Below are positions 1-24,000 of a DNA stretch of 25,499 nt, one piece after another (position 1 is the stretch's first letter; every line of letters begins with the position of its first letter). Below the pieces are notes generated by a model, which saw only the letters and a list, made by a program, of their open reading frames with translations, was not told the origin of the DNA and ran no database searches. The position numbers and the translations under genes were made by a program. The stretch comes from a virus (Duplodnaviria; Heunggongvirae; Uroviricota; Caudoviricetes): the IMG/VR virus record IMGVR_UViG_2734482552_000002. One strand, 5' to 3'.

Positions 1-2
1 GG

Positions 3-212
3 TTATCGCTCGCCACGGGAATATCTGCGGCAGCGGGCTTGTAATGGGTTAAGTGATAACAGATGTCTGGAAATATAGGGGCAAATCCAATCGTCGCCGT
101 ATTCCCGTATTAACAGAGACCGTAGCCCGACGGGGAACTCCTTCTGCGCGAGTGTGCGGGAATAATCAAAAACGATGCACACCGGGGTTACCGGGTACAC
201 ATATTTCATCAT
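3..212 (-). CDS. hypothetical small protein (69 aa), weakly supported
   Basis: Complete ORF from the track (MMKYVYPV...), start codons at 210-212/207-209, stop at 3-5. Same orientation as and 45 nt downstream of the 258-668 gene. No clear Shine-Dalgarno; product not recognised. Confidence 0.2.
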   Translation of the reverse strand: MMKYVYPVTPVCIVFDYSRTLAQKEFPVGLRSLLIREYGDDWICPYISRHLLSLNPLQARCRRYSRGER

Positions 213-257
213 GCCAGCGAGTCCGGTTCTGGCACGGAAGAAACCGGACGTTATGAT

Positions 258-668
258 TTAGTGCGGAAATATTTGTGTAGTGTTCTGTATGTTCTCAGTA
301 AAGAGTAATGAATTATCAAAGGTATAGTAATACCTTTTGTTTTCGTGGATATTTGTAATCCATCTGAAAACCCCTGCTGTAGCAAGATTTTTCCTGTATT
401 CGTAAAATGATAACTCTCCTGATTTGAATCCTTTTAAGGTGGCTTCTATAAGGCATTTATTTTTTGAAAATCTTACATTTACAACCTTACCCTGTCCTTT
501 TATTAAAACCGTATTATCGTTTTCAAGAACAAGATGAATATTCTCTGTGGCTAAATAGTAAATGTAATGTGAGACATTGTGACGTTTTAGTTCAGAATAA
601 AACCAGTGATAGTTTAAATTATTTCGCACTTTATCGAATATTTGTTTAAAAATGGCAACCTGAGCCAT
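258..668 (-). CDS. hypothetical protein, AT-rich moron gene (136 aa from second ATG; 141 aa if ATG at 683 is used)
   Basis: ORF-track ORF 258..683. The internal ATG at 668 is preceded on the coding strand by GGAAGG about 8 nt upstream, so it is the more likely start. Visibly AT-rich (roughly 30% GC by eye) against a roughly 50-57% GC background. Product rich in N/K/Y/F; I do not recognise a family. Confidence 0.5.
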
Positions 669-725
669 TGTAGTACCTTCCATGTGATATGAGGGGGCGT
701 AGTCTGCACGATTATCTAAATTGCT

Positions 726-959
726 TCAATCTGGTCTAACCTGTTTTCTGAGCAATTCAGTAATGTCACTCTTTTCTTTGTTTGCTTCAGGCGAAACTCT
801 TTTTTCTGAGCACAGTCTCCGGCGGCAGGCTTCAATGACCCAGGCTGAGAAATTCCCGGACCCTTTTTGAACAAGAGCGATGTTAATTTGTTCAATCATT
901 TGGTTAGGAAAGCGGATGTTGCGGGTTGTTGTTCTGCGGGTTCTGTTCTTCGTTGACAT
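726..959 (-). CDS. small basic DNA-binding protein, ribbon-helix-helix (Arc/CopG/MetJ-like) fold predicted
   Basis: 77-aa ORF MSTKNRTRRTTTRNIRFPNQMIEQINIALVQKGSGNFSAWVIEACRRRL... The pattern is a basic N-terminus, a short beta-strand (RNIRF), helix A (PNQMIEQINIAL), a G-x-G/N turn and helix B, which is typical of RHH repressors and antitoxins. Sits 57 nt upstream of the 258-668 gene on the same strand. Confidence 0.5.
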   Translation of the reverse strand: MSTKNRTRRTTTRNIRFPNQMIEQINIALVQKGSGNFSAWVIEACRRRLCSEKRVSPEANKEKSDITELLRKQVRPD

Positions 960-1158
960 GAGGTTGCCCTGTATTCAGTGTCGCTGATTTGTATTGTCTG
1001 AAGTTGTTTTTACGTTAAGTTGATGCAGATCAATTAATACGATACCTGCGTCATAATTGATTATTTGACGTGGTTTGATGGCGTAGATGCACGTTGTGAC
1101 ATGTAGATGATAATTATTATCATTTTGCGGGTCCTTTCCGGCGATCCGACAGGTTACG

Positions 1159-1170
1159 GGGCGGAAGGCG
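1159..1170. promoter_or_regulatory. cosN: cosN 12-nt cohesive-end segment (GGGCGGAAGGCG)
   Basis: Positional alignment to lambda: the 12 nt following ...CAGGTTACG and preceding CGCGGGTTTTCGC. The lambda overhang I recall is GGGCGGCGACCT; here positions 7-12 read AAGGCG. Confidence 0.6.
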
Positions 1171-1266
1171 CGCGGGTTTTCGCTATTTATGACAATTTTC
1201 CGGTTTAAGGCGTTTCCGTTCTTCTTCGCCGTAACCTAATGTTTTTATTTAAAACACCCCCTGAAA

Positions 1267-1323
1267 AGAAAGGAAACGACAGGTGCTGAAAACGGGCTTT
1301 TTGGCCTCTGTCGTTTCCTTTCT
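1267..1323. repeat. cosB: cosB inverted repeat (Nu1-binding R-element pair)
   Basis: Perfect 16-bp inverted repeat AGAAAGGAAACGACAG (1267-1282) / CTGTCGTTTCCTTTCT (1308-1323) between cosN and the nu1 start, as for the lambda R3/R2 elements. Confidence 0.7.
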
Positions 1324-1347
1324 CTGTTTTTGTCCGTGGAATGAACA

Positions 1348-1867
1348 ATGGAAGTCAACAAAAAGCAGCTGGCTGACATTTTCGGTGCGAGTATCCGTAC
1401 CATTCAGAACTGGCAGGAACAGGGAATGCCCGTTCTGCGAGGCGGTGGCAAGGGTAATGAGGTGCTTTATGACTCTGCCGCCGTTATAAGATGGTATGCC
1501 GAAAGGGATGCTGAAATTGAGAACGAAAAGCTGCGCCGGGAAGTTGAAGAACTGCGGCAGGCCAGCGAGACAGATCTCCAGCCAGGGACTATTGAGTACG
1601 AACGCCATCGACTTACGCGTGCGCAGGCCGACGCACAGGAGCTGAAAAATGCCAGAGACTCCGCTGAAGTGGTGGAAACCGCATTCTGTACTTTCGTGCT
1701 GTCGCGGATCGCAGGTGAAATTGCCAGTATTCTCGACGGGATCCCCCTGTCGGTGCAGCGGCGTTTTCCGGAACTGGAAAACCGACATGTTGATTTCCTG
1801 AAACGGGATATCATCAAAGCCATGAACAAAGCAGCCGCGCTGGATGAACTGATACCGGGGTTGCTGA

Positions 1868-1893
<26 letters not shown>
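1348..1893 (+). CDS. nu1: terminase small subunit Nu1
   Basis: 181 aa, MEVNKKQLADIFGASIRTIQNWQEQGMPVLRGGGKGNEV...; recognised as lambda gpNu1 (winged-HTH N-terminus). Overlaps A by 26 nt as in lambda. Confidence 0.95.
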
Positions 1894-5574
<3,681 letters not shown>

Positions 5575-5594
<20 letters not shown>

Positions 5595-6894
5595 TCTCCC
5601 GCATATTGCCAGCATGGCTTTTAATGAGCCGCTGATGCTTGAACCCGCCTATGCGCGGGTTTTCTTTTGTGCGCTTGCAGGCCAGCTTGGGATCAGCTGC
5701 CTGACGGATGCAGTATCCGGCGACAGCCTGACTGCCGGAGAGGCACCCGCGGCGCTGGCGTTATCCGGTGATGATGACGGACCACGACAGGCCCGCAGTT
5801 ATCAGGTAATGAACGGCATCGCCGTGCTGCCGGTGTCCGGCACGCTGGTCAGCCGGACGCGGGCGCTGCAGCCGTACTCGGGGATGACCGGTTACAACGG
5901 CATTATCGCCCGTCTGCAACAGGCTGCCAGCGACCCGATGGTGGACGGCATTCTGCTCGATATGGACACACCGGGCGGAATGGTGGCGGGAGCATTTGAC
6001 TGCGCTGACATCATCGCCCGTGTGCGTGACATAAAGCCGGTATGGGCGCTGGCCAATGACATGAACTGCAGCGCAGGTCAGCTGCTTGCCAGTGCCGCCT
6101 CCCGGCGTCTGGTCACGCAGACCGCCCGGACAGGCTCCATCGGCGTCATGATGGCTCACAGTAATTACGGCGCTGCACTGGAGAAACAGGGCGTGGAAAT
6201 CACGCTGATTTACAGCGGCAGCCATAAGGTGGATGGCAACCCCTACAGCCATCTACCGGATGATGTCCGGGAAACATTGCAGTCCCGGATGGATGCAACC
6301 CGCCGGATGTTTGCACAGAAGGTGTCGGCATATACCGGCCTGTCCGTGCAGGCTGTGCTGGATACCGAGGCTGCAGTGTACAGCGGTCAGGAGGCCATTG
6401 ATGCCGGACTGGCTGATGAACTTGTTAACAGTACCGATGCGATCACCGTCATGCGTGATGCACTGGATGCACGTAAATCCCGTCTCTCAGGAGGGCGAAT
6501 GACCAAAGAGACTCAATCAACAACTGTTTCAGCCACTGCTTCGCAGGCTGACGTTACTGGCGTGGTGCAAGCGACGGAGGGCGAGAACGCCAGCGCGGCG
6601 CAGCCGGACGTGAACGCGCAGATCACCGCAGCGGTTGCGGCAGAAAACAGTCGCATTATGGGGATCCTCAACTGTGAGGAGGCTCACGGACGCGAAGAAC
6701 AGGCACGCGTGCTGGCCGAAACCCCCGGTATGACCGTGGAAACGGCCCGCCGTATTCTGGCCGCAGCACCACAGAGTGCACAGACGCGCAGTGACACTGC
6801 GCTGGATCGTCTGATGCAGGGGGCACCGGCACCGCTGGCTGCAGGTAACCCGGCATCTGATGCCGTTAACGATTTGCTGAACACACCAGTGTAA
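5575..6894 (+). CDS. C: prohead protease / capsid assembly protein gpC
   Basis: GTG start at 5575 (VTAELRNLPHIASMAFNEPLMLEPAYARVFF...), 20-nt overlap with B as in lambda, 439 codons. The ORF-track start at 5440 is an upstream in-frame extension overlapping B. Confidence 0.9.
6289..6894 (+). CDS. nu3: scaffolding protein Nu3 (in-frame internal start within C)
   Basis: In-frame ATG at 6289 (MDATRRMFAQKVSAYTG...) giving a 201-codon product co-terminal with C, the known lambda C/Nu3 nested arrangement. Confidence 0.75.
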   Translation: MDATRRMFAQKVSAYTGLSVQAVLDTEAAVYSGQEAIDAGLADELVNSTDAITVMRDALDARKSRLSGGRMTKETQSTTVSATASQADVTGVVQATEGENASAAQPDVNAQITAAVAAENSRIMGILNCEEAHGREEQARVLAETPGMTVETARRILAAAPQSAQTRSDTALDRLMQGAPAPLAAGNPASDAVNDLLNTPV

Positions 6895-6903
6895 GGGATG
6901 TTT

Positions 6904-7236
6904 ATGACGAGCAAAGAAACCTTTACCCATTACCAGCCGCTGGGCAATAGTGACCCGGCTCATACCGCAACCGCGCCCGGCGGATTGAGTGCGAAAGCGC
7001 CTGCAATGACCCCGCTGATGCTGGACACCTCCACCCGTAAGCTGGTTGCGTGGGATGGCACCACCGACGGTGCTGCCGTTGGCATTCTTGCGGTTGCTGC
7101 TGACCAGACCAGCACCACACTGACGTTCTACAAGTCCGGCACGTTCCGTTATGAGGATGTGCTCTGGCCGGAGGCTGCCAGCGACGAGACGAAAAAACGG
7201 ACCGTGTTTGCCGGAACGGCAATCAGCATCGTTTAA
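6904..7236 (+). CDS. D: head decoration protein gpD
   Basis: 110 aa, [27 protein letters not shown]...; AAGGGA Shine-Dalgarno 5 nt upstream of ATG 6904; matches lambda gpD. Confidence 0.95.
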
Positions 7237-7291
7237 CTTTACCCTTCATCACTAAAGGCCGCCTGTGTGGCTTTTTTTACGGGATTTTTTT

Positions 7292-8317
7292 ATGTCGATG
7301 TACACAACCGCCCAGCTGCTGGCGGCAAATGAGCAGAAATTTAAGTTTGATCCGCTGTTTCTGCGTCTCTTTTTCCGTGAGAGCTATCCCTTCACTACGG
7401 AGAAAGTCTATCTCTCACAAATTCCGGGACTGGTAAACATGGCGCTGTACGTTTCGCCGATTGTTTCCGGTGAGGTTATCCGTTCCCGTGGCGGCTCCAC
7501 CTCTGAATTTACGCCGGGATATGTCAAACCCAAGCATGAGGTGAATCCGCAGATGACCCTGCGTCGCCTGCCGGATGAAGATCCGCAGAATCTGGCGGAC
7601 CCGGCTTACCGCCGCCGTCGCATCATCATGCAGAACATGCGTGACGAAGAGCTGGCCATTGCTCAGGTCGAAGAGATGCAGGCAGTTTCTGCCGTGCTCA
7701 AGGGCAAATACACCATGACCGGTGAAGCCTTCGATCCGGTTGAGGTGGATATGGGCCGCAGTGCGGCGAACAACATCACACAGTCCGGCGTCACGGAGTG
7801 GAGCAAGCGTGACAAGTCCACGTATGACCCGACCGACGATATCGAAGCCTACGCGCTGAACGCCAGCGGTGTGGTGAATATCATCGTGTTTGACCCGAAA
7901 GGCTGGGCGCTGTTCCGTTCCTTCAAAGCCGTCAAGGAGAAGCTGGATACCCGTCGCGGCTCTCATTCCGAGCTGGAGACAGCGGTAAAAGACCTGGGCA
8001 AAGCGGTGTCCTATAAGGGAATGTATGGCGATGTGGCCATCGTCGTGTATTCCGGACAGTACGTGGAAAACGGCGTCAAAAAGAACTTCCTGCCGGACAA
8101 CACGATGGTGCTGGGGAACACTCAGGCTCGCGGTCTGCGCACCTATGGCTGCATTCAGGATGCGGACGCACAGCGCGAAGGCATTAACGCTTCTGCCCGT
8201 TACCCGAAAAACTGGGTGACCACCGGCGATCCGGCGCGTGAGTTCACCATGATTCAGTCAGCACCGCTGATGCTGCTGGCTGATCCTGATGAGTTCGTGT
8301 CCGTTCAACTGGCGTAA
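7292..8317 (+). CDS. E: major capsid protein gpE
   Basis: 341 aa from ATG 7292 (MSMYTTAQLLAANEQKFKFDPLFLRLFF...); matches lambda gpE in sequence and length. Confidence 0.95.
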   Translation: MSMYTTAQLLAANEQKFKFDPLFLRLFFRESYPFTTEKVYLSQIPGLVNMALYVSPIVSGEVIRSRGGSTSEFTPGYVKPKHEVNPQMTLRRLPDEDPQNLADPAYRRRRIIMQNMRDEELAIAQVEEMQAVSAVLKGKYTMTGEAFDPVEVDMGRSAANNITQSGVTEWSKRDKSTYDPTDDIEAYALNASGVVNIIVFDPKGWALFRSFKAVKEKLDTRRGSHSELETAVKDLGKAVSYKGMYGDVAIVVYSGQYVENGVKKNFLPDNTMVLGNTQARGLRTYGCIQDADAQREGINASARYPKNWVTTGDPAREFTMIQSAPLMLLADPDEFVSVQLA

Positions 8318-8319
8318 TC

Positions 8320-8341
8320 ATGGCCCTTCGGGGCCATTTTC
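8320..8341 (+). terminator. possible attenuator hairpin between E and FI
   Basis: Perfect 7-bp stem ATGGCCC-TTCG-GGGCCAT (8320-8337) followed by TTTTCTCTCT, directly after the E stop. Weak as a terminator. Confidence 0.3.
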
Positions 8342-8358
8342 TCTCTGTGGAGGAGTTC

Positions 8359-8757
8359 ATGACGAAAGATGAACTGATTGCCCGTCTTCAGGAGCTGGGT
8401 GAGCAATTGAACCGCGATGTCAGTTTGACGGGAACGAAAGAAGAACTGGCGCTTCGTGTGGCAGAGCTGGAAGAAGAGCTTGATGACACGGATGAAACTG
8501 CCGGTCAGGACACCCCTCTCAGCCGGGAAAATGTGCTGACCGGGCATGAAAATGAGGTGGTATCAGCGCAGCCGGATACCGTGATTCAGGATACGGCTGA
8601 ACTGGTCACGGTCGTGGCACTGGTGACGCTGCATACTGATGCACTTCACGCCACGCGGGATAAACCTGTGGCATTTGTGCTGCCGGGAACGGCGTTTCGT
8701 GTCTCTGCCGGTGTGGCAGCCGAAATGACAGAGCGCGGCCTGGCCAGAATGCAATAA
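8359..8757 (+). CDS. FI: DNA packaging accessory protein gpFI
   Basis: 132 aa from ATG 8359, GGAGG 4-5 nt upstream; MTKDELIARLQELGEQLNRDVSLTGTKEELALRVAELEEELDD...; matches lambda gpFI. Confidence 0.9.
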   Translation: MTKDELIARLQELGEQLNRDVSLTGTKEELALRVAELEEELDDTDETAGQDTPLSRENVLTGHENEVVSAQPDTVIQDTAELVTVVALVTLHTDALHATRDKPVAFVLPGTAFRVSAGVAAEMTERGLARMQ

Positions 8758-8768
8758 CGGGAGGCGCT

Positions 8769-9122
8769 GTGGCTGATTTCGATAACCTGTTCGATGCTGC
8801 CATTGCCCGCGCCGATGAAACGATACGCGGGTACATGGGAACGTCAGCCACCATGACATCCGGTGAGCAGTCAGGTGCGGTGATACGTGGTGTTTTTGAT
8901 GACCCTGAAAATATCAGCTATGCCGGACAGGGCGTGCGCGTTGAAGGCTCCAGCCCGTCCCTGTTTGTCCGGACTGATGAGGTGCGGCAGCTGCGGCGTG
9001 GAGACACGCTGACCATCGGTGAGGAAAATTTCTGGGTAGATCGGGTTTCGCCGGATGATGGCGGAAGTTGTCATCTCTGGCTTGGACGGGGCGTACCGCC
9101 TGCCGTTAACCGTCGCCGCTGA
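8769..9122 (+). CDS. FII: head completion (head-tail joining) protein gpFII
   Basis: 117 aa, GTG start per ORF track, MADFDNLFDAAIARADETIRGYMG...; matches lambda gpFII. Confidence 0.9.
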   Translation: MADFDNLFDAAIARADETIRGYMGTSATMTSGEQSGAVIRGVFDDPENISYAGQGVRVEGSSPSLFVRTDEVRQLRRGDTLTIGEENFWVDRVSPDDGGSCHLWLGRGVPPAVNRRR

Positions 9123-9133
9123 AAGGGGGATGT

Positions 9134-9553
9134 ATGGCCATAAAAGGTCTTGAGCAGGCCGTTGAAAACCTCAGCCGTATCAGCAAAACGGCGGTGCCCG
9201 GTGCCGCCGCAATGGCCATTAACCGCGTTGCTTCATCCGCGATATCGCAGTCTGCGTCACAGGTTGCCCGTGAGACAAAGGTACGCCGGAAACTGGTAAA
9301 GGAAAGGGCCAGGCTGAAAAGGGCCACGGTCAAAAATCCGCAGGCCAGAATCAAAGTTAACCGGGGGGATTTGCCCGTAATCAAGCTGGGTAATGCGCGG
9401 GTTGTCCTGTCCCGCCGCAGGCGTCANNNNNNNNNNNNNNNNNNNNNNNNNNNNNNNNNNNNNNNNNNNNNNNNNNNNNNNNNNNNNNNNNNNNNNNNNN
9501 NNNNNNNGGGCTATGCGCTGCAGCATCAACTGAGAATGGTAATAAAGCGATGA
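9134..9553 (+). CDS. Z: tail completion protein gpZ (interrupted by N-run, incomplete)
   Basis: MAIKGLEQAVENLSRISKTAVPGAAAMAINRV... and C-terminus ...[14 protein letters not shown] match lambda gpZ; the middle is replaced by 81 N. Lambda Z is 192 aa as I recall, so the N-run likely under-represents the missing sequence. Confidence 0.85.
   Translation: MAIKGLEQAVENLSRISKTAVPGAAAMAINRVASSAISQSASQVARETKVRRKLVKERARLKRATVKNPQARIKVNRGDLPVIKLGNARVVLSRRRRXXXXXXXXXXXXXXXXXXXXXXXXXXXXGYALQHQLRMVIKR
9427..9507. other. N-run (81 nt), assembly gap or masked sequence inside Z
   Basis: Literal n characters in the sequence. Confidence 1.
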
Positions 9554-11547: not shown

Positions 11548-14101
11548 ACCGGTAGGCGATCTGGTCGTTGATTTGAGTCTGGATGCGGCCAGATTTGACG
11601 AGCAGATGGCCAGAGTCAGGCGTCATTTTTCCGGTACGGAAAGTGATGCGAAAAAAACAGCGGCAGTCGTTGAACAGTCGCTGAGCCGACAGGCGCTGGC
11701 TGCACAGAAAGCGGGGATTTCCGTCGGGCAGTATAAAGCCGCCATGCGTATGCTGCCTGCACAGTTCACCGACGTGGCCACGCAGCTTGCAGGGGGGCAG
11801 AATCCCTGGCTGATCCTGCTGCAACAGGGTGGTCAGGTTAAGGACTCCTTCGGCGGGATGATCCCCATGTTCAGGGGGCTTGCCGGCGCGATCACCCTGC
11901 CGATGGTGGGGGCCACCTCGCTGGCGGTGGCGACCGGTGCGCTGGCGTATGCCTGGTATCAGGGCAACTCAACCCTGTCCGATTTCAACAAAACGCTGGT
12001 CCTTTCCGGTAATCAGGCGGGACTGACGGCAGATCGTATGCTGGTCCTGTCCAGAGCCGGGCAGGCGGCAGGGCTGACGTTTAACCAGACCAGCGAGTCA
12101 CTCAGCGCACTGGTTAAGGCGGGGGTAAGCGGTGAGGCTCAGATTGCGTCCATCAGCCAGAGTGTGGCGCGTTTCTCCTATGCATCCGGCGTGGAGGTGG
12201 ACAAGGTCGCTGAAGCCTTCGGGAAGCTGACCACAGACCCGACGTCGGGGCTGACGGCGATGGCACGCCAGTTCCATAACGTGACGGCGGAGCAGATTGC
12301 GTATGTTGCTCAGTTGCAGCGTTCCGGCGATGAAGCCGGGGCATTGCAGGCGGCGAACGAGGCCGCAACGAAAGGGTTTGATGACCAGACCCGCCGCCTG
12401 AAAGAGAACATGGGCACGCTGGAGACCTGGGCAGACAGGACTGCACGTGCATTCAAATCCATGTGGGATGCGGTGCTGGATATTGGTCGTCCTGATACCG
12501 CGCAGGAGATGCTGATTAAGGCAGAGGCTGCGTTTAAGAAAGCAGACGACATCTGGAATCTGCGCAAGGATGATTATTTCGTTAACGATGAAGCACGGGC
12601 GCGTTACTGGGATGATCGTGAAAAAAAACGCCTGGAGCGGGATGCAGCCCAAAAGAGGGTAGATCAACAGCGTCAACAGGACAAAAATGCGCAGCAGCAG
12701 AGCGATACCGAAGCGTCACGGCTGAAATATACCGAAGAGGCGCAGAAGGCTTACGAACGGCTGCAGACGCCGCTGGAGAAATATACCGCCCGTCAGGAAG
12801 AACTGAACAAGGCACTGAAAGACGGAAAAATCCTGCAGGCAGATTACAACACGCTGATGGCGGCGGCGAAAAAGGATTATGAAGCGACGCTGAAAAAGCC
12901 GAAACAGTCCGGCGTGAAGGTGTATGCGGGCGATCGTCAGGAAGACAGTGCTCATGCGGCCCTGCTGACGCTTCAGGCAGAACTCCGGACGCTGGAGAAG
13001 CATGCCGGAGCGAATGAGAAAATCAGCCAGCAGCGCCGGGATTTGTGGAAGGCAGAAAGTCAGTTCGCGGTACTGGAGGAGGCGGCACAACGTCGCCAGC
13101 TGTCCGCACAGGAGAAATCCCTGCTGGCGCATAAAGACGAGACGCTGGAGTACAAACGCCAGCTGGCTGCACTTGGTGACAAGGTTACGTATCAGGAGCA
13201 CCTGAATGCGCTGGCGCAGCAGGCGGATAAATTCGCACAGCAGCAACGGGCAAAACGGGCAGCCATTGATGCGAAAAACCGGGGGCTGACTGACCGGCAG
13301 GCAGCGCGGGAAGCCACGGAACAGCGCCTGAAGGAACAGTATGGCGATAATCCTCTGGCGCTGAATAACGTCATGTCAGAGCAGAAAAAGACCTGGGCGG
13401 CTGAAGACCAGCTTCGCGGGAGCTGGATGGCAGGCCTGAAGTCCGGCTGGAGTGAGTGGGAAGAGAGCGCCACGGACAGTATGTCACAGGTTAAAAGTGC
13501 AGCCACGCAGACCTTTGATGGTATTGCACAGAATATGGCGGCGATGCTGACCGGCAGTGAACAGAACTGGCGCAGCTTCACCCGCTCCGTGCTGTCCATG
13601 ATGACAGAAATTCTGCTTAAGCAGGCAATGGTGGGGATTGTCGGGAGTATCGGCAGCGCCATTGGCGGGGCTGTTGGTGGCGGCGCATCCGCGTCAGGTG
13701 GTACAGCCATTCAGGCCGCTGCGGTGAAATTCCATTTTGCAACCGGGGGATTTACGGGAACCGGCGGCAAATATGAGCCAGCGGGGATTGTTCACCGTGG
13801 TGAATTTGTCTTCACGAAGGAGGCAACCAGCCGGATTGGCGTGGGGAATCTCTACCGGCTGATGCGCGGCTATGCGGAAGGTGGTTATGTGGGCGGTGCC
13901 GGAAGTCCGGCGCAGATGCGGCGGGCTGAAGGCATTAATTTTAATCAGAACAATCACGTGGTGATTCAGAACGACGGTACGAATGGTCTGCCAGGTCCAC
14001 AGATGATGAAGGCCGTGTATGACATGGCCCGCAAGGGTGCCCGTGATGAAATTCAGACACAGATGCGTGATGGTGGCCTGTTCTCCGGAGGTGGACGATG
14101 A
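11540..14101 (+). CDS. H: tail tape measure protein gpH
   Basis: 853 aa, MAEPVGDLVVDLSLDAARFDEQMARVRRHF...; same length as lambda gpH; coiled-coil-rich middle and Gly-rich C-terminal region. Confidence 0.95.
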   Translation: MAEPVGDLVVDLSLDAARFDEQMARVRRHFSGTESDAKKTAAVVEQSLSRQALAAQKAGISVGQYKAAMRMLPAQFTDVATQLAGGQNPWLILLQQGGQVKDSFGGMIPMFRGLAGAITLPMVGATSLAVATGALAYAWYQGNSTLSDFNKTLVLSGNQAGLTADRMLVLSRAGQAAGLTFNQTSESLSALVKAGVSGEAQIASISQSVARFSYASGVEVDKVAEAFGKLTTDPTSGLTAMARQFHNVTAEQIAYVAQLQRSGDEAGALQAANEAATKGFDDQTRRLKENMGTLETWADRTARAFKSMWDAVLDIGRPDTAQEMLIKAEAAFKKADDIWNLRKDDYFVNDEARARYWDDREKKRLERDAAQKRVDQQRQQDKNAQQQSDTEASRLKYTEEAQKAYERLQTPLEKYTARQEELNKALKDGKILQADYNTLMAAAKKDYEATLKKPKQSGVKVYAGDRQEDSAHAALLTLQAELRTLEKHAGANEKISQQRRDLWKAESQFAVLEEAAQRRQLSAQEKSLLAHKDETLEYKRQLAALGDKVTYQEHLNALAQQADKFAQQQRAKRAAIDAKNRGLTDRQAAREATEQRLKEQYGDNPLALNNVMSEQKKTWAAEDQLRGSWMAGLKSGWSEWEESATDSMSQVKSAATQTFDGIAQNMAAMLTGSEQNWRSFTRSVLSMMTEILLKQAMVGIVGSIGSAIGGAVGGGASASGGTAIQAAAVKFHFATGGFTGTGGKYEPAGIVHRGEFVFTKEATSRIGVGNLYRLMRGYAEGGYVGGAGSPAQMRRAEGINFNQNNHVVIQNDGTNGLPGPQMMKAVYDMARKGARDEIQTQMRDGGLFSGGGR

Positions 14102-14427
14102 AAACCTTCCGCTGGAAAGTGAAACCCGGTATGGATGTGGCTTCGGCCCCTTCTGTAAGAAAGGTGCGCTTTGGTGATGGCTATTCCCAGCGAGCGCCTG
14201 CCGGGCTGAATGCCAACCTGAAAACGTACAGCGTGACGCTTTCTGTCCCCCGTGAGGAGGCCATGGTACTGGAGTCGTTTCTGGAAGAGCACGGGGGCTG
14301 GAAAGCCTTTCTGTGGACGCCGCCTTATGAGTGGCGGCAGATAAAGGTGACCTGCGCAAAATGGTCGTCGCGGGTCAGTATGCTGCGTGTTGAGTTCAGC
14401 GCAGAGTTTGAACAGGTGGTGAACTGA
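14098..14427 (+). CDS. M: minor tail protein gpM
   Basis: 109 aa, MKTFRWKVKPGMDVASAPSVRKVRFGDGYSQRAPAGLNANLK...; matches lambda gpM; ATGA overlap with H. Confidence 0.95.
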   Translation: MKTFRWKVKPGMDVASAPSVRKVRFGDGYSQRAPAGLNANLKTYSVTLSVPREEAMVLESFLEEHGGWKAFLWTPPYEWRQIKVTCAKWSSRVSMLRVEFSAEFEQVVN

Positions 14428-15014
14428 TGCAGGATATCCGGCAGGAAACACTGAATGAATGCACCCGTGCGGAGCAGTCGGCCAGCGTGGTGCTCTGGGA
14501 AATCGATCTGACAGAGGTCGGTGGAGAACGTTATTTTTTCTGTAATGAGCAGAACGAAAAAGGTGAGCCGGTCACCTGGCAGGGGCGACAGTATCAGCCG
14601 TATCCCATTCAGGGGAGTGGTTTTGAACTGAATGGCAAAGGCACCAGTACGCGCCCCACGCTGATGGTTTCTAACCTGTACGGTATGGTCACCGGGATGG
14701 CGGAAGATCTACAGAGTCTGGTCGGCGGAACGGTGGTCCGGCGTAAGGTTTACGCCCGTTTTCTGGATGCGGTGAACTTCGTCAACGGAAACAGTGACGC
14801 CGATCCGGAGCAGGAGGTGATCAGCCGCTGGCGCATTGAGCAGTGCAGCGAACTGAGCGCGGTGAGTGCCTCTTTTGTACTGTCCACGCCGACGGAAACA
14901 GATGGCGCTGTTTTTCCGGGACGTATCATGCTGGCCAACACCTGCACCTGGACCTATCGCGGCGATGAGTGCGGTTATCACGGTCCGGCGGTCGCGGATG
15001 AATATGACCAGCCA
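14427..15014 (+). CDS. L: minor tail protein gpL (3-prime end lost in N-run)
   Basis: MQDIRQETLNECTRAEQSASVVLWEIDLTEVGGERYFFCNEQNEKGEPV...; matches lambda gpL up to the gap. Lambda L is 232 aa as I recall, so about 36 C-terminal codons are missing. Confidence 0.9.
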
Positions 15015-15312
15015 NNNNNNNNNNNNNNNNNNNNNNNNNNNNNNNNNNNNNNNNNNNNNNNNNNNNNNNNNNNNNNNNNNNNNNNNNNNNNNNNNNNNNN
15101 NNNNNNNNNNNNNNNNNNNNNNNNNNNNNNNNNNNNNNNNNNNNNNNNNNNNNNNNNNNNNNNNNNNNNNNNNNNNNNNNNNNNNNNNNNNNNNNNNNNN
15201 NNNNNNNNNNNNNNNNNNNNNNNNNNNNNNNNNNNNNNNNNNNNNNNNNNNNNNNNNNNNNNNNNNNNNNNNNNNNNNNNNNNNNNNNNNNNNNNNNNNN
15301 NNNNNNNNNNNN
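15015..15312. other. N-run (298 nt), assembly gap or masked sequence spanning the L 3-prime end and the L-K junction
   Basis: Literal n characters. Confidence 1.
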
Positions 15313-15330
15313 CCGGAGGCGTATTTCCGT

Positions 15331-15930
15331 ATGTCGCCGGAAGACTGGCTGCAGGCAGAGATGCAGGGTGAGATTGTGGCACTGGTCCACAGCCACCCCG
15401 GTGGTCTGCCCTGGCTGAGTGAGGCCGACCGGCGGCTGCAGGTGCAGAGTGATTTGCCGTGGTGGCTGGTCTGCCGGGGGGCGATTCACAAGTTCCGCTG
15501 TGTGCCACATCTTACCGGGCGGCGCTTTGAGCACGGGGTGACGGACTGTTACACGCTGTTCCGGGATGCTTACCATCTGGCGGGGATTGAGATGCCGGAT
15601 TTTCATCGTGAGGATGACTGGTGGCGTCACGGTCAGAATCTCTATCTGGATAATCTGGAGGCCACAGGGCTGTATCAGGTGCCGTTGTCAGCGGCGCAGC
15701 CGGGCGATGTGCTGCTGTGCTGTTTTGGTTCATCGGTGCCGAATCATGCCGCCATTTACTGTGGTGACGGCGAGCTGCTGCACCATATTCCTGAACAACT
15801 GAGTAAACGAGAGAGGTACACCGACAAATGGCAGCGACGCACACACTCCCTCTGGCGTCACCGGGCATGGCACGCATCTGCCTTTACGGGGATTTGCAAC
15901 GATTTGGCCGCCGCATCGACCTTCGTGTGA
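15331..15930 (+). CDS. K: tail assembly protein gpK (MPN/JAMM plus NlpC/P60-like); 5-prime end may extend into the gap
   Basis: First ATG after the gap (MSPEDWLQAEMQGEIVALVHSHPGGLPWLSEADRRLQ...), 199 codons; the open frame continues upstream to the gap edge at 15313. HSHPGG is a JAMM-type motif. Matches lambda gpK. Confidence 0.85.
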   Translation: MSPEDWLQAEMQGEIVALVHSHPGGLPWLSEADRRLQVQSDLPWWLVCRGAIHKFRCVPHLTGRRFEHGVTDCYTLFRDAYHLAGIEMPDFHREDDWWRHGQNLYLDNLEATGLYQVPLSAAQPGDVLLCCFGSSVPNHAAIYCGDGELLHHIPEQLSKRERYTDKWQRRTHSLWRHRAWHASAFTGICNDLAAASTFV

Positions 15931-16499
15931 AAACGGGTGCCGAAGCCATCCGGGCGATGGCCACACAGCTCCCTGCGTTTCGTCAGAAGCTGAGCGACGG
16001 CTGGTATCAGGTGCGTATTGCCGGGCAGGATGTTAGCACGTCCGGATTAACGGCACAGTTACATGAGGCTCTGCCTGACGGCGCTGTGATTCATATTGTT
16101 CCCAGAGTCGCCGGGGCCAAGTCAGGTGGTGTATTCCAGATTGTCCTGGGAGCAGCCGCCATTGCCGGATCATTCTTTACCGCCGGAGCCACCCTTGCAG
16201 CATGGGGGGCTGCCATTGGTGCCGGTGGTATGACCGGCATTCTGTTTTCTCTCGGTGCCAGTATGGTGCTCGGCGGTGTGGCTCAGATGCTGGCACCGAA
16301 AGCCAGAACTCCCCGCACACAGACAACGGATAACGGTAAGCAGAACACCTATTTCTCCTCACTGGATAACATGGTTGCCCAGGGCAATGTTATGCCTGTT
16401 CTGTATGGTGAAATGCGCGTGGGGTCACGTGTGGTATCTCAGGAGATCAGCACGGCAGACGAAGGGGACGGTGGTCAGGTTGTGGTGATTGGTCGCTGA
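15828..16499 (+). CDS. I: tail assembly protein gpI
   Basis: 223 aa, MAATHTLPLASPGMARICLYGDLQRFGRRIDLRVKTGAEAIRAMATQLP...; matches lambda gpI; overlaps the K 3-prime end by 103 nt. Confidence 0.93.
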   Translation: MAATHTLPLASPGMARICLYGDLQRFGRRIDLRVKTGAEAIRAMATQLPAFRQKLSDGWYQVRIAGQDVSTSGLTAQLHEALPDGAVIHIVPRVAGAKSGGVFQIVLGAAAIAGSFFTAGATLAAWGAAIGAGGMTGILFSLGASMVLGGVAQMLAPKARTPRTQTTDNGKQNTYFSSLDNMVAQGNVMPVLYGEMRVGSRVVSQEISTADEGDGGQVVVIGR

Positions 16500-16559
16500 T
16501 GCAAAATGTTTTATGTGAAATCGCCTCCGGGCGGTTTTATCGTTTATGGAGCATGACGA

Positions 16560-19500
16560 ATGGGTAAAGGCAGCAGTAAGGGGCATACCCCGCGCGAAGC
16601 GAAGGACAACCTGAAGTCCACGCAGCTGCTGAGTGTGATCGATGCCATCAGCGAAGGGCCGGTTGAAGGTCCGGTGGATGGATTAAAAAGCGTGCTGCTG
16701 AACAGTACGCCGGTGCTGGACAGTGAGGGGAATACCAACATCTCCGGCGTCACGGTGGTGTTCCGGGCAGGTGAGCAGGAGCAGTCACCGCCGGAGGGAT
16801 TTGAATCCTCCGGCTCCGAGACGGTGCTGGGTACGGAAGTGAAATATGACACGCCGATCACCCGGACCATCACGTCGGCAAACATTGACCGACTGCGTTT
16901 TACCTTCGGTGTACAGGCACTGGTGGAAACCACCTCAAAGGGAGACAGGAATCCGTCTGAAGTTCGCCTGCTGGTTCAGATACAGCGTAACGGTGGCTGG
17001 GTGACGGAAAAAGACATCACCATTAAGGGCAAAACCACCTCGCAGTATCTGGCCTCGGTGGTGGTGGATAACCTGCCGCCGCGCCCGTTTAATATCCGGA
17101 TGCGCAGAATGACGCCGGACAGCACCACAGACCAGCTGCAGAACAAAACGCTCTGGTCGTCATACACCGAAATCATCGATGTGAAACAGTGCTACCCGAA
17201 CACGGCACTGGTCGGCGTACAGGTGGATTCGGAGCAGTTCGGCAGCCAGCAGGTGAGCCGTAATTATCATCTTCGCGGGCGCATTCTGCAGGTGCCGTCG
17301 AACTATAATCCGCAGACGCGGCAATACAGCGGTATCTGGGACGGAACGTTAAAACCGGCATACAGCAACAACATGGCCTGGTGTCTGTGGGATATGCTGA
17401 CCCATCCGCGCTATGGCATGGGGAAACGTCTTGGTGCGGCAGATGTGGATAAATGGGCGCTGTATGTCATCGGCCAGTACTGTGACCAGTCGGTGCCGGA
17501 CGGCTTTGGCAGCACGGAGCCGCGCATCACCTGTAATGCCTGGCTGACCACACAGCGCAAGGCGTGGGATGTGCTCAGTGATTTCTGCTCGGCGATGCGC
17601 TGTATGCCGGTATGGAACGGGCAGACGCTGACGTTCGTGCAGGACCGACAGTCGGATAAGGTGTGGGCCTATAACCGCAGTAATGTGGTGATGCCGGATG
17701 ATGGCGCGCCGTTCCGCTACAGTTTCAGCGCCCTGAAAGACCGCCATAATGCCGTTGAGGTGAACTGGATTGACCCGGATAACGGCTGGGAGACGGCGAC
17801 AGAGCTTGTGGAGGATACGCAGGCCATTGTCCGTTACGGTCGTAACGTCACGAAGATGGATGCCTTTGGCTGTACCAGCCGGGGGCAGGCACACCGCGCC
17901 GGGCTGTGGCTGATTAAAACGGAACTGCTGGAGACGCAGACCGTGGATTTCAGCGTGGGTGCTGAAGGGCTTCGTCATGTACCGGGCGATGTCATTGAAA
18001 TCTGCGATGATGACTATGCCGGTATCCGCACCGGCGGGCGCGTGCTGGCGGTGAACAGCCAGACCCGGACGCTGACGCTCGACCGTGAAATCACGCTGCC
18101 ATCCTCCGGCACCACGCTGATAAGCCTGGTTGACGGGCAGGGGAATCCGGTCAGCGTGGAGGTCCAGTCCGTCACCGACGGCGTGAAGGTAAAAGTGAGC
18201 CGTGTTCCTGACGGTGTTGCTGAATACAGCGTGTGGGGGCTGAAGCTGCCGACGCTGCACCAGCGATTGTTCCGCTGCGTGAGTATCCGTGAGAACGACG
18301 ACGGCACGTATGCCATCACCGCCGTGCAGCATGTGCCGGAAAAAGAAGCCATCGTGGATAACGGGGCGCACTTTGACGGCGACCAGAGCGGCACGGTGAA
18401 TGGTGTCACGCCGCCAGCGGTGCAGCACCTGACTGCCGAAGTCACCGCAGACAGCGGGGAATATCAGGTGCTGGCGCGCTGGGACACGCCGAAGGTGGTG
18501 AAGGGCGTGAGCTTCCTGCTCCGTCTGACCGTAACAGCGGATGACGGCAGTGAGCGGCTGGTCAGCACGGCCCGGACGACGGAAACCACTTACCGCTTCA
18601 CACAACTGGCGCTGGGGAACTACAGGCTGACAGTCCGGGCAGTAAATGCGTGGGGGCAGCAGGGCGATCCGGCGTCGGTATCGTTCCGGATTGCCGCACC
18701 GGCAGCGCTGTCGCGGATTGAGCTGACGCCGGGCTATTTTCAGATAACCGCCACGCCGCATCTTGCGGTTTATGATCCGACGGTACAGTTTGAGTTCTGG
18801 TTCTCGGAAAAGCGGATTGCGGATATCAGGCAGGTTGAAACCACAGCACGCTATCTTGGCACGGCGCTGTACTGGATAGCCGCCAGTATCAATATCAAAC
18901 CGGGCCATGATTATTACTTTTATATCCGCAGTGTGAACACCGTTGGCAAATCGGCATTCGTGGAGGCTGTTGGTCAGCCGAGTGATGATGCATCCGGTTA
19001 TCTGGATTTTTTCAAAGGCGAGATAGGGAAAACCCATCTGGCTCAGGAGCTGTGGACGCAGATTGATAACGGTCAGCTTGCGCCTGACCTGGCTGAAATC
19101 AGGACGTCCATTACGGATGTCAGCAATGAAATCACGCAGACCGTCAATAAGAAACTGGAAGACCAGAGTGCGGCAATTCAGCAGATACAGAAGGTTCAGG
19201 TTGATACAAATAATAACCTGAACAGCATGTGGGCTGTGAAGCTGCAGCAGATGCAGGACGGACGCCTTTATATCGCGGGTATTGGTGCCGGTATTGAGAA
19301 CACCCCTGACGGCATGCAGAGTCAGGTGCTGCTGGCGGCGGACAGGATTGCGATGGTTAATCCTGCGAATGGCAACACAAAACCGATGTTTGTTGGTCAG
19401 GGCGATCAGATATTCATGAACGACGTGTTCCTGAAACGCCTGACGGCCCCCACCATTACCAGCGGTGGAAATCCATCGGCATTTTCCCTGACTCCGGACG

Positions 19501-20057
19501 GAAAGCTGACCGCTAAAAATGCGGATATCAGTGGCAGTGTGAATGCGAACGCCGGGACGCTCAACAATGTCACGGTAAATGAAAACTGTACGATTAAGGG
19601 CATGCTGGAGGCGACTCAGGTCAGAGGTGACTTCGTTAAAGCTGTATCCAAATCATTTCCGAAACAGGCTGGTACGTGGGGTAACACGGAAACACCAAAC
19701 GGGACGGTTACAGTCACCATAAGCGATGATCATAACTTTGACCGCCAGATTATTATTCCGCCCATTATTTTTAACGGTATAGCGTATGACGATCCGGGGA
19801 GCGGAAATAACCCAGGAGGCACGCGATACACGGGTTATGGTTTTGAAGTTCGCAAAAACGGCGTATTAATCGCATCCAGAGAAACTAAAGGGGCCATTCC
19901 CGGTAGTTACAGTGCAGTTATTGATATGCCTAGTGGTGGTGGTAGCGTCACTCTGGAGTTTAAGATTTTCCAGAAAGGCAATCAGGGGGCAGGCAATATC
20001 ACCGACTGTACGGTGATTGTGACCAAAAAAGCGGCTTCCGGCATCAGTATTCGTTGA
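16560..20057 (+). CDS. J: tail tip attachment / host specificity protein gpJ (central tail fibre)
   Basis: 1165 aa, [53 protein letters not shown]...; the N-terminal and central parts are clearly lambda gpJ. Lambda J is 1132 aa as I recall, so the length differs, most likely in the C-terminal receptor-binding part. Confidence 0.93.
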
Positions 20058-20079
20058 AATATTTATAACCCCAATAAAT

Positions 20080-20106
20080 GGCGTCAGGAATGACGCCTTT
20101 TTTATT
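20080..20106 (+). terminator. rho-independent terminator downstream of J
   Basis: GGCGTCA-GGAA-TGACGCC hairpin (20080-20097) followed by TTTTTTATT. Confidence 0.75.
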
Positions 20107-20127
20107 GCAGAAAAGCGAGAGGTAATT

Positions 20128-20943
20128 ATGCGTAAAGTTTGTGCAGCCATTTTGTCCGCAGCCATTTGCCTGGCCGTATCCGGTGCGCCTGCATGGGCGT
20201 CTGAACATCAGTCCACGCTGAGCGCGGGGTATCTTCATGCCCGGACCAACGTTCCCGGCAGTGATGATCTGAACGGGATTAACGTGAAATACCGTTATGA
20301 GTTTACGGATACGCTGGGGCTGGTGACGTCATTCAGCTATGCAGGAGACAAGAATCGCCAGCTGACCCGTTACAGCGATACCCGCTGGCATGAAGATTCC
20401 GTGCGTAACCGCTGGTTCAGCGTGATGGCGGGGCCGTCTGTGCGCGTGAATGAATGGTTCAGCGCGTATGCGATGGCGGGTGTGGCTTACAGCCGTGTGT
20501 CGACTTTCTCCGGGGATTATCTCCGCGTAACTGACAACAAGGGGAAAACGCACGACGTGCTGACCGGAAGTGATGACGGTCGCCACAGCAACACGTCTCT
20601 GNNNNNNNNNNNNNNNNNNNNNNNNNNNNNNNNNNNNNNNNNNNNNNNNNNNNNNNNNNNNNNNNNNNNNNNNNNNNNNNNNNNNNNNNNNNNNNNNNNN
20701 NNNNNNNNNNNNNNNNNNNNNNNNNNNNNNNNNNNNNNNNNNNNNNNNNNNNNNNNNNNNNNNNNNNNNNNNNNNNNNNNNNNNNNNNNNNNNNNNNNNN
20801 NNNNNNNNNNNNNNNNNNNNNNNNNNNNNNNNNNNNNNNNNNNNNNNNNNNNNNNNNNNNGACCGGAAGTGATGACGGTCGCCACAGCAACACGTCTCTG
20901 GCGCACTGACGGTTTCATCGTGGGTGTCGGTTATAAATTCTGA
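20128..20943 (+). CDS. lom: outer membrane protein Lom (Ail/Lom family), interrupted by N-run
   Basis: MRKVCAAILSAAICLAVSGAPAWASEHQSTLSAGYLHARTNVPGSDDLNGINVKYRYEF... (signal peptide plus beta-barrel) and C-terminus ...WRTDGFIVGVGYKF match lambda Lom. The reading frame across the gap is not trustworthy. Confidence 0.88.
   Translation: MRKVCAAILSAAICLAVSGAPAWASEHQSTLSAGYLHARTNVPGSDDLNGINVKYRYEFTDTLGLVTSFSYAGDKNRQLTRYSDTRWHEDSVRNRWFSVMAGPSVRVNEWFSAYAMAGVAYSRVSTFSGDYLRVTDNKGKTHDVLTGSDDGRHSNTSLXXXXXXXXXXXXXXXXXXXXXXXXXXXXXXXXXXXXXXXXXXXXXXXXXXXXXXXXXXXXXXXXXXXXXXXXXXXXXXXXXXXXXXXPEVMTVATATRLWRTDGFIVGVGYKF
20602..20860. other. N-run (259 nt), assembly gap inside lom, flanked by an identical 40-nt direct repeat
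   Basis: Literal n characters; GACCGGAAGTGATGACGGTCGCCACAGCAACACGTCTCTG occurs at 20562-20601 and again at 20861-20900. Confidence 1.
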
Positions 20944-20970
20944 TTAGCCAGGTAACACAGTGTTATGACA

Positions 20971-20997
20971 GCCCGCCGGTTCAGGCGGGCTTTTTTG
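20971..20997 (+). terminator. rho-independent terminator downstream of lom
   Basis: GCCCGCCGG-TTCA-GGCGGGC hairpin followed by TTTTTTGT. Confidence 0.8.
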
Positions 20998-21007
20998 TGG
21001 GGTGAAT

Positions 21008-24000
21008 ATGGCAGTAAAGATTTCAGGTGTACTGAAAGACGGCACAGGAAAACCGGTACAGAACTGCACAATCCAGCTGAAAGCAAAACGTAACAGCACC
21101 ACGGTGGTGGTGAACACGCTGGCCTCAGAAAATCCGGATGAAGCCGGGCGTTACAGCATGGACGTTGAGTACGGTCAGTACAGCGTTATTCTGTTGGTGG
21201 AAGGATTCCCGCCGTCACATGCCGGGACCATCACCGTGTATGAAGATTCCCGACCCGGTACGCTGAATGATTTTCTCGGTGCCATGACGGAGGATGATGC
21301 CCGTCCGGAGGCACTGCGCCGTTTTGAGCTGATGGTGGAAGAGGTGGCGCGTAACGCGTCCGCGGTGGCACAGAACACGGCAGCCGCGAAGAAATCAGCC
21401 AGCGATGCCAGCACATCAGCCCGTGAGGCGGCAACCCATGCGACTGATGCTGCAGATTCAGCACGTGCAGCCAGCACGTCAGCCGGACAGGCCGCTTCGT
21501 CGGCTCAGTCAGCGTCTTCCAGCGCAGGAACGGCATCAACAAAGGCCACTGAAGCCTCAAAAAGTGCTGCCGCTGCAGAGTCCTCAAAAAGCGCGGCGGC
21601 TACCAGTGCCGGTGCGGCGAAAACGTTAGAAACGAATGCGGCAGCGTCACAACAATCAGCAGCCACTTCTGCATCCACCGCGACCACGAAAGCGTCAGAA
21701 GCTGCCACCTCAGCCCGGGATGCGTCGGCTTCAAAAGAGGCGGCAAAATCATCAGAAACGAACGCATCATCAAGCGCCAGTAGCGCAGCTTCCTCGGCGA
21801 CGGCGGCTGCAAATTCTGCGAAGGCGGCCAAAACGTCCGAGACGAACGCCAGGTCTTCTGAAACGGCAGCGGGACAGAGTGCCTCAGCTGCGGCAGGCTC
21901 AAAAACAGCGGCTGCGTCGTCTGCCAGCGCCGCGTCAACAAGTGCCGGGCAGGCCTCAGCCAGTGCCACCGCCGCCGGAAAATCGGCAGAAAGCGCCGCA
22001 TCATCCGCTTCAACAGCCACAACGAAGGCTGGCGAAGCCACTGAGCAGGCCACGGCAGCAGCGAGGTCAGCTTCCGCAGCGAAGACATCCGAAACGAACG
22101 CGAAAGCGTCGGAAACCCGTGCAGAATCCTCAAAAACGGCTGCCGCATCGTCCGCCAGTTCGGCGGCGTCATCGGCATCATCGGCGTCTGCTTCAAAAGA
22201 TGAGGCGACCAGACAGGCGTCAGCAGCGAAGGGCAGCGCCACGACGGCATCCACGAAGGCGACAGAGGCTGCTGGTAGTGCGACGGCAGCAGCTCAGAGC
22301 AAAAGTACGGCGGAATCTGCAGCAACGCGCGCTGAGACAGCGGCAAAACGGGCAGAGGATATTGCATCCGCCGTGGCGCTTGAGGATGCGAGCACGACGA
22401 AAAAGGGGATAGTACAGCTCAGTAGTGCGACTAACAGCACTTCCGAGTCACTGGCGGCAACACCAAAAGCCGTTAAGGCCGCGTATGACCTGGCTAACGG
22501 GAAATACACCGCACAGGATGCAACGACAGCACAGAAAGGGATAATCCAGCTAAGCAGCGCGACCAACAGCACGTCTGAAACGCTGGCGGCAACGCCAAAG
22601 GCAGTAAAAGCAGCCAATGACAATGCTGAGAAACGTCTGCAGAAAGATCAGAACGGTGCGGATATCCCTGGCAAAGACACCTTTACGAAAAATATTGGTG
22701 CCTGCCGTGCCTTCGGTGGGTCAGTAAGCACAACAACAGGAAACTGGACGACTGCACAGTTTATCGAGTGGCTGGATTCTCAGGGAGCATTTAACCATCC
22801 ATACTGGATGTGCAAGGGTTCCTGGTCTTATGGCAATAATAAAATCATTACTGATACTGGCTGCGGTAATATTCATCTCGCCGGAGCTGTCATTGAAGTA
22901 ATGGGGATAAAGTCAGCGATGACGATCCGCATTACCACTCCGACCACATCCAGCGGTGGCGGAACAACCAACGCCCAGTTTACCTATATTAATCACGGAA
23001 CAGATTATTCACCTGGCTGGCGAAGGGACTATAACTCCAGAAATAAGCCAACGGCATCAGAGATCGGGGCGCTACCGTCAGGTGGAACAGCAGTATCATC
23101 AGTTAATCTGGCTTCAAAAGGTCGGGTAGCCGCGCTGACAGACAATACGCAGGGGGCAGCAGGTCTTGAGTTATACGAGGTGTATAACAACGGATATCCA
23201 ACAGCGTATGGAAATATCATTCACCTGAAAGGGATGACAGCCGTTGGCGAAGGTGAGTTACTCATCGGCTGGAGTGGTACAAGCGGTGCTCATGCTCCGG
23301 CATTTATTCGTTCACGACGGGATACGACCGACGCAAACTGGTCGCCGTGGGCGCAGCTTTACACCTCGGCTCATCCTCCTGCAGAGTTTTATCCAGTCGG
23401 TGCACCAATCCCGTGGCCATCAGATACCGTTCCGTCTGGTTATGCCCTGATGCAGGGGCAGACTTTTGACAAATCTGCTTACCCGAAACTTGCAGCCGCT
23501 TATCCGTCAGGCGTGATCCCTGATATGCGTGGCTGGACGATTAAGGGCAAGCCCGCCAGTGGTCGTGCCGTATTGTCTCAGGAACAGGATGGCATTAAAT
23601 CGCACACCCACAGCGCCAGCGCATCCAGTACGGATTTGGGGACGAAAACCACATCGTCGTTTGATTACGGCACTAAATCCACGAATAACACCGGGGCGCA
23701 TACGCACAGTCTGAGCGGCTCTACAAGTTCAGCTGGGGCCCACCAACATAGTCAGACTGGGCCCAGAACGAATAGCGGGAGTCAACCTACTGGAATGTTT
23801 CCGGCAGGGAGTACTCAAGTTAGCGGGACTAATCAGGTTGGTATCAGTGGCTCATTAACCAGTGGCACCTCCCAATGGGTAGGTAAATCATCTTCAGAAG
23901 GAAACCATACACACTCACTGTCCGGCACAGCAGCATCTGCGGGTGCACACGCGCATACTGTCGGTATTGGTGCTCATACGCACTCTGTTGCGATTGGTTC

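Follow-up and report, generated by a model that had tools for sequence, protein, structure and literature searches.

The window, by which we mean the whole 25,499-nucleotide stretch of DNA analysed here, carries a lambda-like cos site whose cohesive end departs from that of lambda only in the half proximal to cosB, and we regard this variant cosN, with a probability of about 85%, as a functional and tolerated natural allele rather than a lesion. The sequence, its recurrence, the intactness of the other cos parts and the closeness of the terminase to that of lambda are observed directly, and from these we infer the nick positions and that the site is cleaved. The confinement of all changes to bp 7-12, together with recurrence on many genetic backgrounds, is what supports the tolerated-variant reading. 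The allele is a further example of variation in a half-site already known to vary, and it probably circulates among lambda-like phages, N15-like phage-plasmids and satellites as a tolerated polymorphism.

Window positions 1159-1170 read GGGCGGAAGGCG, and the same columns in lambda read GGGCGGCGACCT, in a gap-free alignment with the Lambda PV340536 and DE3 records, the latter of which labels the aligned 12 bases 'cos site'. Five of the 12 bases differ (C7A, G8A, A9G, C10G and T12G, at window 1165-1168 and 1170) and C11 is retained, which leaves an identity to the lambda cohesive end of 7/12; the window is without GGGCGGCGACCT, so the allele is not that of cosN-lambda, which lambda, DE3 and the majority of E. 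coli prophages have. A preliminary description, made from the letters of the window, had reported that the overhang appears to differ from lambda's, while the flanks and terminase look lambda-like. The lambda overhang given there was accurate, GGGCGGCGACCT being found in both reference records, and the remaining claims hold as well: the flanks are identical, and the terminase subunits nearly so. The stretch at 1152-1183 consists of GGTTACG, GGGCGGAAGGCG and CGCGGGTTTTCGC in succession and occurs once in the window (chance expectation 0).

Apart from the cosN block, window 1143-1192 equals lambda, i.e., some 25 bp on either side are identical. Positions 1050-1350 were aligned with six phage records found by megablast (Lambda PV340536, DE3, 2H10, PhiR70_1, Kati and a Stx1a phage), and over these 301 bases the window shows 22 mismatches with lambda, five of which fall within a single 6-bp block, a clustering beyond chance (permutation p ~0.002). 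By a hand count from the sequence, the 10 rotationally symmetric positions of the 16-bp core in lambda become 8 in the window. The sum of stacking energies over the overhang is -19.8 kcal/mol in the window as against -20.2 kcal/mol in lambda, and G+C stands at 10/12 in each; given equal G+C and near-equal stacking energy, cyclisation should be unaffected. To the right of the cohesive end, Stx1a-converting phages read CGAGGG as against CGCGGG (bp 15). The features of the region are collected in Table 1.

Table 1. Subsites of cos and the adjoining terminase genes, in window coordinates.
Feature	Position	Strand	Basis and remarks
cosQ heptamer GGGTCCT, packaging termination signal	1129..1135	+	Sequence search; lambda positions -30 to -24
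cosQ-cosN spacer	1136..1156	+	As lambda save T1142C; most variable stretch among allele carriers
cosN core, CG + 12-bp cohesive end + CG	1157..1172	+	Alignment with lambda and DE3; putative nick positions
cosN left half GGGCGG, as lambda	1159..1164	+	Alignment; half in which, e.g., G2C cuts yield (PMC4669245)
Variant cosN right half AAGGCG (lambda CGACCT)	1165..1170	+	Alignment; 5/6 bases changed, C11 kept
I2 spacer (lambda bp 18-50)	1176..1208	+	Length as lambda; one substitution, A35C at 1193
cosB R3 (lambda bp 50-65), as lambda	1208..1223	+	Alignment; R3 coordinates from PMC9026076
IHF site I1 region, R3 to R2	1224..1266	+	5 differences from lambda
cosB R2, 16-mer CTGTCGTTTCCTTTCT	1267..1282	-	Sequence search
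cosB R1, 16-mer CTGTCGTTTCCTTTCT	1308..1323	+	Sequence search
Nu1 (TerS), 181 aa	1348..1893	+	178/181 as lambda; PF07471
gpA (TerL), 641 aa	1868..3793	+	637/641 as lambda; PF05876 residues 47-285, PF20454 residues 322-600

The cosQ heptamer is identical to that of lambda in the alignment and invariant over the 39 allele-bearing haplotypes. The identity and position of this heptamer in lambda were reportedly given by Wieczorek and Feiss in 2001, and cosQ has been described as a highly conserved 7-bp site (PMC4669245). The spacer between cosQ and cosN varies among allele carriers (CCGGCAGGCTACG, CCAGAACGTTACG, CCGGCCTGTTACG) with the 12-mer constant. The CG dinucleotides at both nick flanks are kept (1157-1158 and 1171-1172), and the spacing from cosN to R3 is exact, with zero indels relative to lambda and I2 present in the alignment. 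The 16-mers of R2 and R1, which are the same 16 bp (PMC9026076), are identical to lambda and correctly oriented. The changes in the I1 region are common to other lambdoid prophages, e.g., Stx1a phages. The sequence features that mark a cos as lambda-like are found together here: the left half, the CG flanks, the cosQ spacing, the cosN-R3 spacing, a complex cosB and the terminase genes.

Published genetics already treat the two halves of cosN as unequal. Differences in bp 7-12 are called 'common' among lambda-like phages, with N15 and phiD326 differing at 9 and 12 and Gifsy-1 at 8, 9 and 11, and many right-half cosN mutations have minimal effect whereas the symmetric left-half mutations are severe; G2C, for example, brings the yield down ~10-fold, while the symmetric C11G has no phenotype (PMC4669245). 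Anchorage to cosB for the bottom-strand nick lets TerL-lambda nick right-half variants efficiently, and the left/right asymmetry depends on proximity to cosB (PMC4669245). Feiss and colleagues find cosQ, the left half and the CG flanks conserved, conclude that selection does not act on bp 7-12, and report that cosN-N15 serves TerL-lambda no less well than the enzyme's own cosN, at initiation and at termination (PMC4669245). In the sections of that paper drawn on here, the tolerance data cover individual right-half mutations and the 2-bp N15 difference rather than a 5-bp block (PMC4669245). The position of the nick is set by distance from R3 (PMC4856287, PMC9026076), and the first four cosN bases and two flanking bases per side are given as conserved in another report (PMC9303873, citing the survey of Vahanian et al. 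2017). The allele of the window is in keeping with all of these rules.

Set beside the lambda cos, the window has the same cosQ and spacing, GGGCGG, CG flanks, I2 length, R3 and R2/R1 16-mers, and a Nu1 and gpA that match at 178/181 and 637/641 residues; it differs in bp 7-12 (AAGGCG versus CGACCT), in A35C within I2 and in five changes of the I1 region. In N15, whose record reads GGGCGGCGTCCG at cosN, and in phiD326, variation is likewise restricted to the right half, and T12G is common to N15 and the window. N15 has 2 differences from lambda as opposed to 5 in the window, its cosB is simple and its TerS has a specificity of its own, whereas the window features the complex lambda cosB. The phages PhiR46_1 and YDC107_1 combine the window's allele with lambda-type Nu1/A, without N15's own packaging module. 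Gifsy-1 and the pair mEp213 and LLS, in both of which cosN is GGGCGGCGCGCT (PMC12315714), also provide natural right-half alleles, at fewer and other positions than the window; Gifsy-1 alters bp 11, which the window keeps. Among the published alleles compared (N15, phiD326, Gifsy-1, mEp213/LLS), that of the window, with its five changes, lies furthest from lambda.

We propose that the allele would be handled by terminase much as the lambda site is. Nu1 (TerS) and IHF would assemble on R3-I1-R2-R1, with gpA (TerL) anchored at a fixed distance, and the anchored gpA would then nick the bottom strand between 1170 and 1171 largely whatever bp 7-12 are. A second gpA would read the conserved GGGCGG and the flanking CG and nick the top strand between 1158 and 1159, the expected product being 12-nt 5' overhangs GGGCGGAAGGCG and CGCCTTCCGCCC in place of lambda's. 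In termination, the bottom-strand nick depends on cosQ and not on cosB.

The terminase genes are those of lambda in nearly every residue. Nu1 residues 1-47, which include the winged helix-turn-helix DNA-binding domain, are identical to lambda, and the Nu1 start lies 190 bases after bp 1, the same as in the lambda record used. The four differences in gpA are T151S, D185E, L404R and T466I. We considered whether the gpA nuclease has evolved together with the allele, and rejected this: over 641 columns, comparing 9 allele carriers with 32 lambda-type loci, there was no gpA residue that co-varies with the cosN allele, and the suspected L404R is private to the S. sonnei lineage to which the window belongs. 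N9D and S21A are associated with the allele in part only, an association that looks like linkage to cos. The pairing of a near-lambda gpA with either allele speaks against any need for altered specificity.

The allele is by no means peculiar to the window. Six NCBI assemblies of this S. sonnei prophage lineage, independent of one another, have the same 12-mer together with A35C (nine loci, L206-L214), and an exact copy of the window's gpA protein is listed in 7,057 blocks of a public assembly collection. A 54-base query for the allele, designed without any 28-base word common to lambda-type sequences, gave BLAST matches in 160 of 5,426 complete E. coli genomes, full-length in 77. Nine records with full-length matches were fetched, spanning 100% to 94.2% identity, and 9/9 carry the exact GGGCGGAAGGCG, differences being confined to the cosQ-cosN spacer. 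As a cos region is matched in 4,179 of the 5,426 genomes, the allele amounts to ~2% of cos-bearing genomes. Its carriers come from chickens, pigs, humans and water, and from Korea, Czechia, China, Switzerland, Norway, Belgium and the USA, and the E. coli carriers differ in their neighbouring lysis and accessory modules.

Beyond chromosomal prophages, the allele is present on 23 plasmids in E. coli, S. sonnei, E. albertii and E. fergusonii, all typed as non-mobilizable, mostly ~46 kb and N15-like. It occurs in two phage records, YDC107_1 (genus Ravinvirus) and PhiR46_1 (PV340565), both complete phage-plasmids of the N15-like kind in which the set of lambda-type head and tail genes is full. The linear plasmid-prophage PhiR46_1, complete and N15-like, has annotated telL/telR, ParAB and a full lambda-type Nu1-to-J set. 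The host field of its record is ECOR13, one of three indicator strains across the PhiR record series, which suggests that PhiR46_1 was recovered as infectious particles. Many other carriers are prophages, some of them clearly defective, as in E. coli APEC E14033 with its interrupted capsid gene. The GTDB species representatives include a carrier of the allele, Escherichia sp. E1V33. Searches of the accessible literature for the 12-mer in a phage context, and for a source publication on the PhiR phages, returned nothing, and no phage record in the collection searched starts at the GGGCGGAAGGCG end.

A scan of IMG/VR for sites in which position 10 is not C returned 51 contigs with the allele and the rare relatives CAGGCG, AAGGCT, CAGACG and CTGACG. 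Within lambda-cosB loci, an allele-unbiased scan gives the lambda type at 82/85 and AAGGCG at 1/85, while AAGGCG accounts for 45/47 in the scan that required position 10 to be other than C. The intermediates CAGGCG, AAGGCT and AGACCT were sighted once each. In total, the allele was found on 39 distinct flanking haplotypes. In the phage PhiR70_1 (PV340577; host E. coli C) the allele is GGGCGGAGACCT, which is a single step (C7A) away from lambda and may represent an intermediate. A lambda or lambda-like cos is also present in genomes from unrelated phyla, namely the GTDB genomes of Raphidiopsis brookii, Aeromicrobium sp. and Archangium violaceum and in a 'plasmid' of Alicyclobacillus fastidiosus (L199-L202), exactly that of lambda in 3/4; contamination by lambda or by a cosmid vector is the most likely source.

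Of the competing explanations, the one that fares best, and which we still consider unlikely, is compatible with the main reading: it accepts that the site is cut normally and holds that AAGGCG defines a second cohesive-end compatibility type, common to a subset of lambda-like phages, N15-like phage-plasmids and their satellites and maintained alongside the lambda type by positive frequency dependence. Chromosomes running from a lambda cos to an AAGGCG cos, such as would arise in single-crossover recombinants or mixed concatemers, would have 5/12 of their end positions mismatched and would be expected to fail to cyclise. A 2-bp mismatch between lambda and N15 ends lowers the viable yield ~4-fold (PMC4669245); from this cost, 5/12 mismatches in recombinants could be near-lethal, which would favour a few common alleles, and allele frequencies in lambda-cosB contexts are indeed strongly bimodal. 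However, simple descent at a few percent of cos divergence predicts bimodality too, and the mismatch cost is transient, being resolved within one cycle (PMC4669245). The backgrounds of the allele are, moreover, mosaic, with flanks and gpA N-terminal haplotypes that are common to lambda-type phages, which means that exchange between the two classes occurs close to cosN. Were the compatibility-type explanation correct, the allele would to some extent block cross-packaging as well as single-crossover recombinants.

The preliminary description had posed the choice differently, as one between a tolerated cosN variant and a degenerate cos that leaves the prophage unable to package. The first alternative is the one that gains from the restriction of the changes to bp 7-12, the many backgrounds and the complete phage-plasmids; the second, in which AAGGCG is a lesion that blocks the terminase cut and its carriers cannot package, seems to us very improbable. 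It can appeal to the five substitutions adjoining the bottom-strand nick site, to the decay of the window's prophage, with IS elements at both ends and a lineage-private L404R in a conserved nuclease motif, and to the plainly defective state of some carriers. A lesion should nevertheless be lineage-private and accompanied by other decay of cos, but the allele is not private to one lineage, the subsites and both terminase genes are intact, and the 12-mer is kept on 39 flanking haplotypes with cosQ, the left half, I2 and cosB intact. The non-mobilizable plasmids in four species, 23 in all, have no obvious route of spread except virions, and the right half is tolerant in published genetics (PMC4669245). 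An artefact of sequencing or assembly, a possibility that the preliminary description had also raised and here one at a GC-rich site of a single record, has next to no probability and can be discarded, the 12-mer being present in the six independent assemblies of the lineage, in unrelated E. coli genomes and in IMG/VR contigs.

If the tolerated-allele reading concerns cosN in general, whether the prophage of the window can itself package is a separate matter. The window covers part of a lambdoid prophage of S. sonnei and is delimited by IS sequences, much like a short-read contig between IS repeats: an IS3-family element ends in its first ~89 bases (1-89), and an IS1 end makes up its last 79 (25421-25499). 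CP104423 equals window 1-9426 at 100% identity, and a second assembly with the 12-mer and the identical gpA, CP041322, represents a Shigella sonnei chromosome (PMC8209639). IS elements both flank and interrupt the prophage.

Within gpA, L404R (window 3077-3079) lies three residues past the Asp of a conserved AGIDSQ motif, in the GpA_nuclease domain (PF20454, residues 322-600). To judge from the motif, this Asp is presumably catalytic; a search for published catalytic-residue data on lambda gpA D401 found none, the literature matches concerning T4 gp17 only. Position 404 is Leu in 95 other loci and in the N15 TerL, which is ~65% identical overall to that of lambda (PMC4669245), and outside the S. 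sonnei lineage Arg is found only in two IMG/VR contigs (L152, L188). The substitution could impair or alter cleavage at cos, and far more plausibly so than the cosN allele. In I2, A35C (1193) breaks an A4T4 tract inside the critical bp 30-35; I2 has been defined in lambda, and there block replacement of bp 30-35 is lethal (PMC4856287). A35C is absent from 9/9 sampled E. coli carriers of the allele, and is present in one further locus with the same cosN allele (L105) and in one with a lambda-type cosN (L086). If the prophage cannot package, L404R, A35C or the IS insertions are more likely to be at fault than cosN. So far as its sequence tells, cosN gives no ground to doubt packaging by the window's prophage.

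Truncation of the tail genes Z, L and K was considered as a sign of a dead prophage and ruled out. Runs of N occupy 9427-9507 (gene Z), 15015-15312 (the L/K junction) and 20602-20860 (a lom-like gene), and because they fall inside these genes, the genes look truncated or fused in lists of open reading frames. The length of such a run is not the true length of the segment (81 N in the window stand where CP104423 has 240 nt), and Z is intact in CP104423.

Two simple origins for the six-base block were also tried, and neither convinces. A micro-inversion would require the reverse complement of lambda GCGACCTC, which is GAGGTCGC, to match the window's GAAGGCGC, and an extra pair of indels would be needed. 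A second AAGGCG, found at the left margin of R3 (window 1207-1212; lambda bp 49-54), could hint at a templated copy from R3, but a given 6-mer recurs within ~200 bp by chance about 1 time in 10.

In practical terms, a search for the literal lambda 12-mer will overlook ~2% of the lambda-type cos sites that E. coli and Shigella contain, which matters for annotation and for the prediction of phage ends, and a variant cosN should not be read as the sign of a dead prophage. The allele also offers a possible natural test of how many end mismatches are tolerated in cyclisation. For biology at large the consequence is small, as it was already an established rule for lambda-like phages that cosN can vary freely in its cosB-proximal half.

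The cos alleles are shared with satellites. Lambda-dependent PICI satellites, for which the cos layout has been described, have a cosQ-cosN segment near-identical to that of the helper (PMC9026076). In the satellites met with here (PICI/cf-PICI-type), the sequence from cosQ to bp ~34 is like that of the phages and displays the same alleles, after which a different right flank begins; they have no lambda cosB and bear a Nu1-like or Rpp-like gene within ~100 bp, whereas the window contains the full phage cosB and terminase. Among 39 loci with satellite flanks in IMG/VR, 25 are lambda-type, 8 are GGGCGTCAGGCG, which includes the left-half change G6T, 4 are GGGCGGAAGGCG, and CAGACG and CTGACG are represented by 1 each. 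The satellite cosN is more polymorphic than the phage cosN (satellite loci including L104, L140, L144, L146, L174, L179, L182 and L217-L247).

Two satellite-like elements were seen inside allele-carrying prophages, at 13007-21926 of the S. sonnei CP041322 locus (L214) and at 18428-24121 of the E. coli APEC E14033 locus (L127). Both encode an integrase, AlpA, Bro-N, a D5-type primase and SSB, and the former also has a lambda-E-like capsid and a D-like decoration protein. One sits in the portal gene B and the other in the capsid gene E, the head gene being destroyed in each case. An element of the same kind, with its own Nu1-like TerS, occurs at a further locus (L144).
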